This document shows positions 59,424 through 62,668 of a stretch of DNA of 64,000 bases, piece by piece. A program made the position numbers and the translations under genes. The stretch comes from Nitrosopumilaceae archaeon (GTDB lineage: Archaea; Thermoproteota; Nitrososphaeria; Nitrososphaerales; Nitrosopumilaceae): positions 416,001 through 480,000 of the forward strand of contig OZ242376.1 of the NCBI GenBank assembly GCA_965209085.1, read 5' to 3'. Under the pieces are notes generated by a model. That model ran no database searches. It worked only from the letters and a program-made list of their open reading frames with translations, and was not told the origin of the DNA. Position 1 is the first letter of the stretch, and each line of letters begins with the position of its first letter.

Positions 59424-60530
59424 ATGTGTGCCCCAGACAAGCGTATAATTGCCAAGTAAGAAAAGAGAATCTCCGAGCTGGAAGCAGAGGTTCAACGATA
59501 CAAAAATATGGTGCAAAGTGGCAATGGAAACAAAAGACAATACATCGACGAACATTTGGACGATATGATTGGCGATGACAATTATCTGTACGGGACGACT
59601 GGAATGGATCGTGAAGAATTTGAATGGATTCAGGAACGGTTCAAAAAAACCGTAGAAAATTCATCAGAGACTCCACGCTTTTCAGAATATGTCAACGATC
59701 CTGGAAACACCTGTATTCTCACTGCATCCCAAATTTTGTTTGTCAGTGCCGCAAACGCAACAATCCTAAACAGGAATTGCTTGCGGCCATTACAGGCGTT
59801 GATCAGAGCACCATCAGCAGATATCTGACCTTTTCTGATGAACTATTGATGGATATTCTTCCAACGGCTAAGAATATTGGTGCTGCAATACGGGCAATAC
59901 GTACAAGCGAGTTGTTTAAAAATTCGTACCCGGAAGGGATGGCGGCGAGTTGTATCTTGATACCACGTTTGTACAGGTTCAAAGGCCGCAGGAGAATCAA
60001 GAGGCAGTATACTCTGGAAAGCGCAAGAGGCACGTCTACAACGTACAGATAACCTCAAACAAAGACGGGTTGGTACTTGACATTGGTGGATCTGAAGAGG
60101 GCTCAGCACACGACATGGAGGTACTGCGGCGTAATCCGCCAAATTTTGGCAAATGGACTGATGGCATGAAAAATTCTGATACAAAAAAAGAGCGCCAAAT
60201 TATGCTATATACTGACAAGGGATATCTGTCCGTGGAAAAAGATTATCCTGGAATTATCTCAAAATAGCCGTACAAAAAACCAAAGGGTAAAGGGCTGACA
60301 GAGGCAAATCGTGAATACAGCAAGAGGATCAGTCGTAAGCGCATAAAAGTAGAGCATGCCATAAACTGGCTCAAATGGTTTCGTAGAATGAGTGCCATAT
60401 ATGATGACACAATGGATGCGTTTTATACAGAAATCCAAGTGGTTACAGGACTACCAATCTGCACATCATGTTAAAGGATCGCAAGTATATCGAACCGTTG
60501 GAAAAAGTCTGCCCTCAAATCAAGTAGCAC
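59424..60530 (+). mobile_element. IS5-family (DDE_Tnp_4 + HTH_Tnp_4) transposase pseudogene
   Basis: Broken frames with QELLAAITGVDQSTISR, YLDTT..QRP, YSGKRKRH, GSAHD, TDKGY, RIKVEHAI..LK; ends approximate. Confidence 0.82.
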
Positions 60531-60693
60531 ATCTGTGCACACAGTCACGTATAATATTCTGCTTTATGTCTTGCATATGATATTTTGATTTATTTTGTTG
60601 TCTGCTTGAAGGTTTTAGGCCATGTGTACTTTGATCATGGTAATGCCATAGTTGGAATCATATGTCTTTGCAGTTGATTATGCATAACCATAT

Positions 60694-61815
60694 GTGAAGG
60701 GAGCTTCTAAGACCACAGATGGTTGTAAGAATGTCAAACGATCCGTATCACCGAAACGTAAATCATCTAAAAAAGATCCAAATGCAAACAAACAGATTAC
60801 CACATATTCTGGGAAGAATATGTTTGTTGGAATGGACGTTCACAAGAAATTTCTTCAAATTGCAATGATGGATGAAAAAGCCAAAGTGATTTTTAATGAG
60901 AGGATTGAAAATGAAAACAAGTCCATCAGATGATTCTTCAGATCAAGTGTACCTGAAAATGCAAAAATCGTAATGGAATCTTCGTCCGTATGGTACGGAT
61001 TATATCGATACATGACAGATAAAATGGGTTATGATGTCGTATTGTCAAATCCATGGGCGACAAAAATCATCGCCGCATCCAAGAAAAAGACCGACAAGAG
61101 GGATGCTGTAACACTTGCAGACCTATTACGGTGCGGATACATATCCCTCTGTCATGTCTCAAACAAGGACATAGTGGAACAACGGCAACTTGTACGATAT
61201 CGCGACAGTCTTGTCAAGACAAGGACAACTCTAAAAAACAAAATACATGGAATTTTGTTACAGGGAGGGATAAAGATCTTTGGAGCAACATTTACGCTTA
61301 CATACAATAGAAAACTGCGTTCTCTAAAGGATTATCGTATAAACGGATATTTGGATTCTATTGGATTCGTTAATACAAAAATTGCAGACTCAAACATAAA
61401 AGTACACAACGCATCCGGCTCAAACAAGGATGCAATGTTGCTCAAGACAATACCTGGCATAGGTGATTTTATTTCATTGATACTGGCAGCAGAGATTGAT
61501 GGAGTTGAGAGGTTTTCTGAACCAAAACAACTCAAATCATATGCCGGTCTTGCCCCATCGGTTCGCAATTCAGCAGATGTGGTCCATCATGGACATATAA
61601 CAAAAAGAGGCAGCAGGATGATGCGGTGGGCACTGGTGGAAGCTGTTACCACCCATGTCCGATTTGCATCAGAGAGTAACATTTCTGAATTTTACCGGCG
61701 TCTTGCAGTAAAGAGAGGATCATCCAAGGCCAAAGTTGCAGCAGCGGCCAAGATGCTGGATATCATATTTCGTATGCTAAAGGATAGGAGTGAATTTGAA
61801 ATACATCATAGTTAA
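60694..61815 (+). pseudogene. IS110 DEDD recombinase interrupted by one in-frame TGA (60931-60933)
   Basis: GMDVH / MESS / KTDKRDA (DEDD), TIPGIG, YAGLAPSVRNS (catalytic Ser region), GHITKRG, AKVAAAAK; both ORF pieces are in the same frame. Confidence 0.9.
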
Positions 61816-61819
61816 AGCA

Positions 61820-61980
61820 ACAAACCGCGAGTTAGAGTTTGGGGATGTTACCCCGTTGTATAACTGCGGTAAGCTTTAACATGTGGACGAAGATGGTTGT
61901 GGGATTAAATCCCGAATGGATAGATGTCTTTTTACCTTTTGACTGGAAACAAACACATAGCGAAAGCCATACCGCATGAC
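61820..61980 (+). ncRNA. Predicted bridge/seek RNA of the IS110 element
   Basis: Two stem-internal loop-hairpin units whose loop strands match the element's target flanks and donor ends (see findings); ends approximate. Confidence 0.7.
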
Positions 61981-61992
61981 ACAAAAAAGCAA

Positions 61993-62006
61993 GAAACCTT
62001 TAAAAA
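61993..62006 (+). promoter_or_regulatory. Outward-facing BRE-TATA (GAAACC-TTTAAAAA) in the IS110 right end
   Basis: Archaeal promoter consensus; would lie 30 nt upstream of GTG 60694 in the circular form. Confidence 0.55.
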
Positions 62007-62140
62007 GTATTCACATGGATAAACTCTATTGGTTATGGATACAAAATAGAATGATGTGTTGGATCACGTACATAAATTTTGATTGTTTAGCTAAATTGGA
62101 CTATATGTAGATCTATTAATAAATATCATTAACGATAATA

Positions 62141-62668
62141 TTGGTAGAACGTATACCTGTGCAAGATCAAGCACGTGAGGACCTGATGATTGAGATTTTG
62201 GGTTTGAAAAAAGCTGAAGGCAGATTAGGACATGATGCCGAGGACAATAATGGAAATATCTTTGAGCTTAAATCATCAACAAAAAATAGCTTTGGAACAG
62301 GCAGGGATGTATCAGTTAGCATGATAAATAAATGGAGAAAACGACATTGGGTATTTGCAAATGGTACGAATTACAAATCGGGATTTAAAATTGAAAGTAT
62401 GTATTATTGCTCTCCAAATATGATGAAAGATCAATTTGATATTTTATATGAAAAATTTAAACCCGATATGAAAATATCTAAAACTGTTCTTGCATACGTT
62501 GATGGAATTTTAGTAGAAATTCAGATTGAACGTCTAAAATATTTGCTGAATAGAGGCATGACATATAATAATCCTCATATAAGCATGAAATATGTAAGTT
62601 CATATGGAATTGAAATTGATCTTTCATGCCCAAAGAATAGCTTAAAGACAATTATGGATAAAAATTAG
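62141..62668 (+). CDS. PvuII-like PD-(D/E)xK restriction endonuclease
   Basis: GRLGHDAEDNNGNIFELKS, KWRKRHWVFA, IESMY, YNNPHISMKYVSSYG parallel R.PvuII segments as recalled (GREGNDAVDNAGQEYELKS...INNPKIPVKYVMEHG). Confidence 0.75.
   Translation: MVERIPVQDQAREDLMIEILGLKKAEGRLGHDAEDNNGNIFELKSSTKNSFGTGRDVSVSMINKWRKRHWVFANGTNYKSGFKIESMYYCSPNMMKDQFDILYEKFKPDMKISKTVLAYVDGILVEIQIERLKYLLNRGMTYNNPHISMKYVSSYGIEIDLSCPKNSLKTIMDKN

Follow-up and report, generated by a model that had tools for sequence, protein, structure and literature searches.

A non-autonomous IS110-family element with a predicted two-loop guide RNA in an ammonia-oxidizing archaeon

The window analysed here is a 64,000-nucleotide stretch of DNA from a Nitrosopumilaceae archaeon (GenBank assembly GCA_965209085.1, contig OZ242376.1, positions 416,001 to 480,000 of the forward strand), and our subject is one insertion sequence (IS) within it, at 60687-62021 (+). 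This IS is very probably a non-autonomous copy of an IS110-family element with features of the IS1111 group, carrying a two-loop guide RNA (bridge RNA or seekRNA) that would read both the target and the joined ends of the element. Comparison with copies in the same genome and with relatives from the same class establishes the anatomy of the element, the conserved structure of its 3′ non-coding region, the covariation of guides with flanks and ends, and the presence of empty target sites. An earlier note on this DNA, made from the sequence alone, had proposed a thaumarchaeal IS110/IS1111 element with a bridge RNA whose specificity could be read from its letters, and its claims are taken up below where the results bear on them. 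Coordinates are those of the window unless preceded by a genome identifier.

Results

The element and the four guide matches in its 3′ non-coding region

The element is a 1,335-base-pair (bp) IS, counted with one copy of its TA core at the right end. Its ends are common to seven near full-length copies, and empty sites agree with them. A recombinase gene of 331 codons (60820-61815, +) divides it into a left end of 133 nucleotides (nt; 60687-60819) and a right end of 206 nt (61816-62021), placing the longer non-coding region 3′ of the gene. The host genome (G000; 1.69 Mb, one contig) contains two families of such elements: family 1, with seven near full-length copies (96–100% DNA identity) and about 12 fragments having the same ends, and family 2, with four copies of about 65% DNA identity to family 1. 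Many copies are fragments or are split by other elements.

The 3′ non-coding region contains four short guides arranged as two units, a target loop (unit 1, loop 1) and a donor loop (unit 2, loop 2). Specifically, the target-loop 5′ guide TAGAGTTT (61833-61840, +) is the exact reverse complement of AAACTCTA (62021-62028), and the target-loop 3′ guide TGTATAA (61857-61863, +) agrees at 6 of 7 positions with TGCATAA at 60681-60687. The 3′ guide has the same sense as the left flank plus core and would pair with the bottom strand; at this guide position, 13 of 16 aligned copies have TGCATAA. The donor-loop 5′ guide ATGGTTGT (61893-61900, +) is complementary at 7 of 8 positions to ATAACCAT in the left end, (A)TAACCAT, and the donor-loop 3′ guide ATGGATA (61916-61922, +) is identical to the right end at 62015-62021. 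An inner hairpin, GGGG-ATGTTA-CCCC, is located between the target-loop guides at 61841-61854. All coordinates and strings that the earlier note had given for the four guide matches and the stems are present exactly.

A chance control, which the earlier note had also proposed, used 20,000 dinucleotide-preserving shuffles of the 199-nt 3′ non-coding region. An exact 8-mer complementary to the right flank arose in 110 shuffles, the left-flank 7-mer with at most one mismatch in 6,299, the exact right-end 7-mer in 297, and the left-end 8-mer with at most one mismatch in 2,011. At least three matches occurred together in 26 shuffles, the unit-1 pair occurred at the right spacing in 4, and all four matches occurred in none.

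A predicted and conserved two-loop RNA fold follows the recombinase gene

The guides lie in a predicted bridge/seek RNA motif of about 120 nt with two internal loops (61811-61929, +), defined by fold and covariation, that starts at the recombinase stop codon, 3′ of the gene. In folded order, an outer stem leads to the first internal loop and its hairpin, and a further closing stem leads to the second internal loop and its hairpin. Specifically, outer stem P1, GTTAAAGC / GCTTTAAC (61811-61818 / 61873-61880), encloses unit 1; stem P2, ACCGC / GCGGT (61824-61828 / 61866-61870), is followed by the target loop (5′ strand 61829-61839, 3′ strand 61856-61865) around a hairpin at 61840-61855; and stem P3 (61885-61889 / 61925-61929) is followed by the donor loop (5′ strand 61890-61899, 3′ strand 61915-61924) around a hairpin at 61900-61914. 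The segment 61808-61932 folds with a minimum free energy of -39.5 kcal/mol (z = -4.1), and 0 of 200 shuffles are as stable.

To follow the fold beyond the window, homologues of the intact recombinase were sought in 401 genomes of the same class, 78 of which were positive (including the unpublished genome G282, from which no locus was used). RNAalifold, applied to the post-stop region of 27 elements, recovered the outer stem, the loop-1 and loop-2 closing stems, and the loop-2 hairpin, with compensatory change in 14 of 21 pairs of the consensus. A covariance model built from the 27-element alignment gave 51 matches, scoring the window copy at 103.5 bits and matching 29 of the 30 loci from other genomes; the locus that it missed, L061, ends at a contig end. 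In the seed alignment, some of the sequences were displaced by one column, and a 49-sequence alignment was fitted to the model. In that alignment of 49 distinct sequences, 93.0% of cells pair, versus 39–48% with partners slid by 1–3 columns; both sides change in 18 of 25 pairs, and none of the five measures is equalled in any of 500 shuffles. The fold and covariance check that the earlier note had suggested came out in favour of its two-loop bridge RNA with target and donor loops 3′ of the gene, the fold being conserved and covarying and the guides being followed through about 20 relatives (see below).

Five T residues lie directly after P3 (61929-61933, +), followed by TTTT to 61940, and the tails of most relatives are T-rich at the same place; this T-run is a possible archaeal transcription stop that may define the RNA 3′ end. 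Between the RNA and the right end, 61956-61971 contains a conserved motif, CATAGCGAAAGCCATA (CYAGYGAAAGCYAT in relatives). A third hairpin at 61956-61971 (CYAGYGAAAGCYAT) was considered and rejected, RNAalifold giving 2 pairs and -0.25 kcal/mol. An internal RNA promoter in the last 50 nt of the gene was likewise rejected, the TATA-like candidates being too close to, or inside, conserved codons.

Loop 1 follows the target flanks and loop 2 follows the element ends

We matched the loop-1 strands of each element both to the flanks of that element and, as mismatched controls, to those of every other one, taking the best of four registers, for the controls likewise, because the register between guide and flank varies by 1–2 nt. 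The comparison leaves out L054, in which the hairpin was parsed wrongly, and L041, L042, L044, L047, and L053, in which the parser found no hairpin; loci without a recognisable end on one side are left out for that side. Complementarity between the loop-1 5′ strand and the right flank of the same element averages 5.75 of 8 positions (20 elements), versus 3.54 for mismatched combinations (standard deviation 1.05, 380 pairs; 0/5,000 permutations), and the loop-1 3′ strand matches its own left flank at a mean of 4.18 of 8 positions (17 elements), versus 2.77 for mismatched combinations (0/5,000 permutations). With G·U pairs allowed, the values are 6.25 versus 4.63 for the 5′ strand (0/5,000) and 5.06 versus 4.24 for the 3′ strand (4/5,000); these permutation figures overstate independence, because the relatives are kin.

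Individual loci illustrate the correspondence. At L034, GGTTGATAA is present on both sides, with CATACC in the right flank; at L057, the match is 8/8 on the left and 8/10 on the right. L038 (G357) and L045 (G302) are inserted just upstream of TGCATAAA[GC]TCTAGT, and their guides match. L039 and L046 differ by one guide base (AACC / ATCC), and the paired flank base differs with it (GGTTA / GGATA). The L038/L045 site is the same kind of inverted-repeat end as that of the host genome (see below), cut 6 bp further out. In L039 (G304, 2735-2925), the first right end runs directly into the middle of another, partial copy of the element's own RNA region, and a second right end lies about 165 bp further on. 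The flank of the second right end matches the guide and the first right junction does not; L039 is a nested or tandem insertion, and its second right end was used in the comparison.

The host genome provides a second set of comparisons. In family 2, the loop-1 5′ strand is CGCAGTAT, the reverse complement of which, ATACTGCG, is exactly the element's own right flank, and the loop-2 guides and ends are the same as those of family 1. Within family 1, the four copies with guide TAGAG are all at CTCTA flanks; the ten copies with guide TAGAC comprise six at GTCTA-type flanks and four at CTCTA-type flanks, two of the latter representing one segmental duplicate.

Loop 2 behaves differently, following the ends of the element. 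Right ends were located by means of the 7-mer of the loop-2 3′ strand, which is present at the right end without mismatch in 24 of 27 elements, 66–125 nt downstream of the RNA with one exception. The loop-2 3′ strand follows the end variants ATGGATA, ATAGATA, AAGGTAA, ATGGATT, and ATGGGTA, and relatives with left end CTATATG instead of CCATATG have ATAG instead of ATGG in the loop-2 5′ strand. The prediction that loop 1 tracks target flanks and loop 2 tracks element ends is supported in about 20 divergent relatives of the same class as well as in the window copy, and it is the outcome that the earlier note had named as a check on its two units.

The core is TA, and insertion is into the terminal inverted repeat of another transposon

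We compared the junctions of 16 family-1 and 4 family-2 copies and placed the two copies of the core at 60685-60686 and 62020-62021 (no strand assigned). The longest stretch that the left junction has in common with the right junction across all copies is ATA, at 60684-60686. Family-1 left junctions read TATGCA-TA-ACCATATG in all but one copy. Family-1 right junctions read CACATGGA-TA, followed by AACTCTA (6 copies), AGGTCTA or AGGTCCA (4), CGGTCTA (2), TGGTCTA (1), ACCTCTA (1), ACTCTA (1), or AACTTTA (1). The right junction is ATAC or ATAT in 3 other copies, and the left junction is CTA or GTA in family 2. Because base 4 of ATAA varies on the right and the family-2 left junction is CTA or GTA, we set the core at TA (ATA at the longest) and assign the final A, at 60687, to the element. 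The earlier note had taken ATAA as shared. The empty sites confirm the ends of the element at the TA core, the ATAA overlap falls away, and the element spans 60687-62021.

The left flank (60600-60686, +) is the right end of a repeated element, here called Y, that has a DDE_Tnp_4 transposase; the terminal inverted repeat (TIR) of Y, ...GATTATGCA-TA, provides the left half of the target. The right flank, AACTCTATTG (62022-62031, +), comprises the last bases of the interrupted inverted repeat of Y and provides the right half. Directly upstream of the insertion, 59624-60267 contains the frameshifted DDE_Tnp_4 / HTH_Tnp_4 transposase of Y. Segment 60600-60685 recurs without the IS at more than 20 places in the genome (84–93% identity), and empty Y ends read ...TGCATAAACTCTA[AT]T and then continue into unrelated DNA. 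In all, the host genome contains 80 uninterrupted target-repeat ends of the form ...TATGCAT + NNN[CG]T[CT][TC]A followed by unrelated DNA; they belong to an abundant family of ISs and short elements resembling miniature inverted-repeat transposable elements (MITEs) that ends in ...ATTATGCAT[A/G]N[A/G][C/G]TCTAWT. The base after TGCAT among these 80 ends is G in 42, which lack the TA core, and A in 37. All 11 of the occupied left junctions are TGCATAA, and none of TGCATG type was seen.

The empty-site 16-mer that the earlier note had predicted, TTATGCATAAACTCTA, occurs uninterrupted at three places in the host genome, and a fourth site differs only at the first base. Such uninterrupted sites in the same genome uphold the boundaries at the TA core. 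Insertion is into the TIR of another IS/MITE family, about 9–10 bp from its tip, at ...TTATGCA-TA-AACTCTA. In family 2, the target is a TA at the very tip of a different repeat, of 1,123 bp, for which three uninterrupted tips were found.

The recombinase gene is broken in the window copy and intact in two others

The recombinase gene of the window copy, read through its in-frame TGA (60931-60933) for the comparison, matches DEDD_Tnp_IS110 in its N-terminal part (PF01548, E = 3.2e-27, 95.7 bits against a cut-off of 29) and Transposase_20 in its C-terminal part (PF02371, E = 7.1e-23, 81.2 bits against a cut-off of 21.3). Intact copies have CGA at the codon that is TGA in the window copy. An open 331-codon gene is present in only 2 of the 7 near full-length family-1 copies examined (G000 156304-157658 and 693546-694902), and these two genes are 99% identical to each other; the open gene of the first copy lies on the minus strand at 156522-157514. 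Because of the nonsense codon, the window copy cannot make its own recombinase. The same nonsense codon is present in the copy at G000 963189, and the two copies occupy different insertion sites, which suggests that copies moved after the gene had been broken, using recombinase provided in trans. In family 2, all three of the full-length copies examined, at different sites (G000 666618-667873, L023; 856434-857691, L021; 1172205-1173366, L020), have a common in-frame TAA (YIASL*AINDY) in the recombinase gene, and no intact family-2 recombinase gene was seen in the host genome.

The nearest solved structures are those of the ISCro4 recombinase (E = 2e-8) and the IS621 recombinase (E = 6e-6), matched in the C-terminal half only. 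An intact copy aligned to ISCro4 places GMD on GID, ME on ME, TDKRD on TDAVD, and the S of NSA on the S of ESG; we take the aligned acidic residues and the C-terminal serine to be the catalytic residues. In the C-terminal motif, GLAPSVRNSA, the pattern GL-P----S is kept and the last residue is A, in a protein of 331 amino acids (aa).

The ends of the element contain conserved motifs

The left subterminal inverted repeat, CCATATGTGAA (60688-60698, +), is conserved at the left end of related elements. Aligned with the reverse complement of the right one, TTCACATGG (62010-62018, +), it has 9 matched bases and a one-base indel, and it begins one base inside the core; the pair falls within the 7–17 bp of IS1111-group subterminal inverted repeats. 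The earlier note's assignment to an IS110/IS1111-type element agrees with this repeat pair, with both Pfam domains, with the 331-aa length, and with the longer non-coding region 3′ of the gene.

An internal copy of the donor-loop 5′ strand, AGATGGTTGT (60717-60726, +), is located some 30 nt in from the left tip and can form a hairpin with the left terminus (-11.9 kcal/mol). A donor-strand-like motif, 27–39 nt from the tip, occurs in 16 of 17 related loci and matches the locus's own donor-loop strand at a mean of 7.8 of 10 positions, versus 6.6 of 10 for those of other loci.

At the right end, the box AGAAACC-TTTAAAAA (61992-62006, +) lies 5 nt upstream of the right inverted repeat and faces outward. 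By eye, a YTTAWAAA-like box preceded by a purine-rich stretch is present 5–6 nt upstream of the right inverted repeat in nearly all of 23 tails, and the YTTAWAAA-like box is at the same distance also in nearly all of 17 aligned tails (L005, L023, and L031-L059). This A/T box is a possible archaeal promoter, comprising a transcription factor B recognition element (BRE) and TATA box, that may act across the circle junction; on that junction, the predicted start of transcription would lie about 7–9 nt inside the left end. A short distance beyond the element, an open reading frame at 62141-62668 encodes 175 aa and has a restriction endonuclease domain of PvuII type (E = 1.6e-7).

Comparison with known systems

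The host genome encodes an archaeal AmoA (amoA), and one homologous recombinase locus comes from a metagenome-assembled genome of Nitrosopumilus. The host is on these two grounds an ammonia-oxidizing archaeon, and the thaumarchaeal label that the earlier note had given it holds.

In IS1111-family seekRNAs, the more 5′ of the two guide segments matches the top strand and the more 3′ one the bottom strand, with overlap between the matched stretches of the target (Siddiquee et al. 2024, PMC11187229); the IS1111 group has its longer non-coding region downstream of the recombinase gene (PMC11187229; PMC11208160), and bridge RNAs have been predicted for 93% of the IS1111 entries in ISfinder (Durrant et al. 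2024, PMC11208160). Archaeal IS110 recombinases are known, 662 having been counted (10.1101/2024.06.21.599552), and ISHvo10 is an archaeal IS110/IS1111 entry named in PMC11187229.

The archaeal element resembles the IS1111 seekRNA elements ISEc11, ISPa11, and ISKpn4 in its DEDD recombinase with PF01548 and PF02371, its length of 331 aa within the 330–350 aa of the IS1111 family, its subterminal inverted repeats, its longer 3′ non-coding region, its top-strand-first guide order, the overlap of the matches in the target, and its site-specific insertion (PMC11187229). It differs from them in its ammonia-oxidizing archaeal host, in an RNA motif that starts at the stop codon, in a C-terminal motif ending in SA and not SG, TG, or TA, and in a right-end A/T box that looks like an archaeal TATA box and not a bacterial promoter. 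Assignment to the IS110 family with IS1111-group features is supported by these predicted features, the protein comparison being with two solved IS110-group proteins.

With IS621 and ISCro4 (PMC11208160; PDB 8wt6, 9t56), the element has in common two internal loops, target first and donor second; in each of them both strands are read around a core dinucleotide, which takes part in the pairing on either strand. IS621 differs in having its RNA in the left end, where the archaeal element has it in the right end; in having a loop 5′ side that reads the bottom strand, where that of the archaeal element reads the top strand; and in having a CT core and a 177-nt RNA, where the archaeal element has a TA core and an RNA of about 120 nt (PMC11208160). 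The earlier note had called the system compact, and this is only modestly so: its 331 aa and about 120 nt stand beside a 328-residue IS621 chain (PDB) and the longer IS621 RNA just cited. The DEDD residues and the serine of IS621 and ISCro4 align with those of the archaeal recombinase, and overall similarity is distant. A published element reportedly also targets the TIR of a different transposable element, always at one position and in a single orientation, as is the case here; unlike in that element, the targets here are archaeal DDE_Tnp_4 IS/MITE ends (family 1) and the tip of the 1,123-bp repeat (family 2).

Our search of the literature on IS110 elements and bridge RNAs in Thaumarchaeota, Nitrosopumilus, and archaea found no such RNA described from this lineage, supplements with possible archaeal entries (e.g. 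ISHvo10) lying outside the search. This agrees with the earlier note, which knew of no characterised example from the lineage.

Discussion

By analogy with IS621 and ISEc11, a tetrameric DEDD/serine recombinase would bind the RNA. The loop-1 5′ strand would pair with the top strand to the right of the TA core and the loop-1 3′ strand with the bottom strand to the left, core included; loop 2 would have the same geometry, its 5′ strand pairing with the left end and its 3′ strand having the same sense as the right end. Loop 2 would hold the joined ends of the excised circle, loop 1 would hold the target, and strands would be exchanged at TA. The window copy keeps its ends and its RNA and could move only with recombinase from either of the intact copies. 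Transcription of the RNA, its binding by the protein, the circular intermediate, and current activity are steps that we infer from related systems.

Several results weigh against this reading. In the guide comparison, the best of four offsets was taken, for guides and controls alike, and the relatives are kin; some guides match poorly, namely the 5′ guides of L059 (3/8), L052 (3/8), and L056 (4/8) and the 3′ guide of L039 (1/8), and the left-side match of family 2 is weak. Among family-1 copies, guide and flank are only partly linked (one-sided Fisher p ~0.05-0.07 by hand calculation), one copy with guide TAGAT being at CTTTA, a change that is not compensatory. The window copy itself has one mismatch in its 3′ target guide (TGTATAA against TGCATAA), and it is defective, its recombinase gene being broken by the nonsense codon. 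Where the IS1111 consensus has S(T)G, occasionally TA, the recombinase motif has SA. The inner hairpin of loop 1 aligns poorly, with a three-pair helix that is 77% paired and one extra pair that is 24% paired. Rfam gave only chance-level matches (E > 2) and no bridge-RNA family. The exact empty 16-mer occurs in none of the 40 related genomes searched and only in the window's own genome; the empty site that the earlier note had proposed to look for in related genomes is present in the host and not in those relatives.

These points have to be set beside other explanations of the same data. The two loops might be DNA sites bound by the recombinase or a host protein, in double-stranded or cruciform form and with no RNA involved, an explanation we regard as highly improbable. 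It draws on the third end-like motif inside the left end, by which end-like sequences are reused within the DNA, and on the fact that letters alone cannot separate an RNA fold from a DNA fold. Yet the four stems keep pairing through compensatory changes while their sequence drifts, which fits a folded single strand and would not be expected of sites bound by protein; the flanks that the loop-1 strands track are external to the element and differ between families; and related recombinases have been shown to need such an RNA (PMC11187229; PMC11208160). It is barely credible that the element extends further than we propose, with the bases conserved past CACATGGATA (AACTCTATT or GGTCTAAT) and ahead of ACCATATG being part of it and the flank matches being internal repeats. 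About 8–10 bases on each side are indeed conserved in all copies of the host genome, and BLAST matches run 5–10 bases past the proposed ends, but the same bases are joined without the element at the 80 target-repeat ends and then give way to unrelated DNA, the left flank continues into its repeat at the more than 20 places that lack the element, and relatives from other genomes are flanked by quite different sequences, which nonetheless agree with the guides of the respective element.

A different matter is whether the guide RNA is still in use. The bridge RNA may have been used once, with no copy moving now and the window copy being debris; we think this unlikely, though it deserves serious attention. 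The gene is open in only two of the seven family-1 copies, the three full-length family-2 copies all have the TAA, and many copies are fragmentary or interrupted by other elements, as would be the case for a fossil. Against this, two genes are intact and 99% identical to each other, copies 96–100% identical in DNA are present at different sites, and the same nonsense codon is present at two insertion sites (the window and G000 963189). On balance, the reading of the window copy as a non-autonomous IS110-family element with a two-loop guide RNA is the one that we very much favour.

The recombinases of ammonia-oxidizing archaea may further form an archaea-adapted branch of the IS1111 type, with an expression logic legible throughout in the DNA, a proposal that combines the end motifs described above and that we put forward tentatively, with more doubt than conviction. 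In such a branch, the outward-facing BRE/TATA box would fire across the circle junction and transcribe the recombinase gene; the resulting transcript would have the bridge RNA as its 3′ end and would terminate at the T-run past the donor loop. The copy of the donor strand in the left end would fold on the terminus and could serve as a competitor or brake. The elements would be parasites on the termini of other transposons, and copies with broken genes would spread with their own guide RNA and a borrowed enzyme.

The finding leaves the known mechanism unchanged. It would extend RNA-guided (bridge/seek RNA) recombination to ammonia-oxidizing archaea, with natural evidence of programmability: a single 1.69-Mb genome contains two families, and two guide variants within family 1, that have the same ends and donor loop and different target loops and that occupy sites to match, in part only within family 1, and about 20 further guide-target pairs are distributed across the archaeal class. 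Beside IS621 and ISCro4, these pairs would provide for comparison a natural set of small recombinases and RNAs of mesophilic archaeal origin (331 aa, about 120 nt, TA core). For the host, the elements would act as parasites on transposon ends in a small, otherwise streamlined genome.

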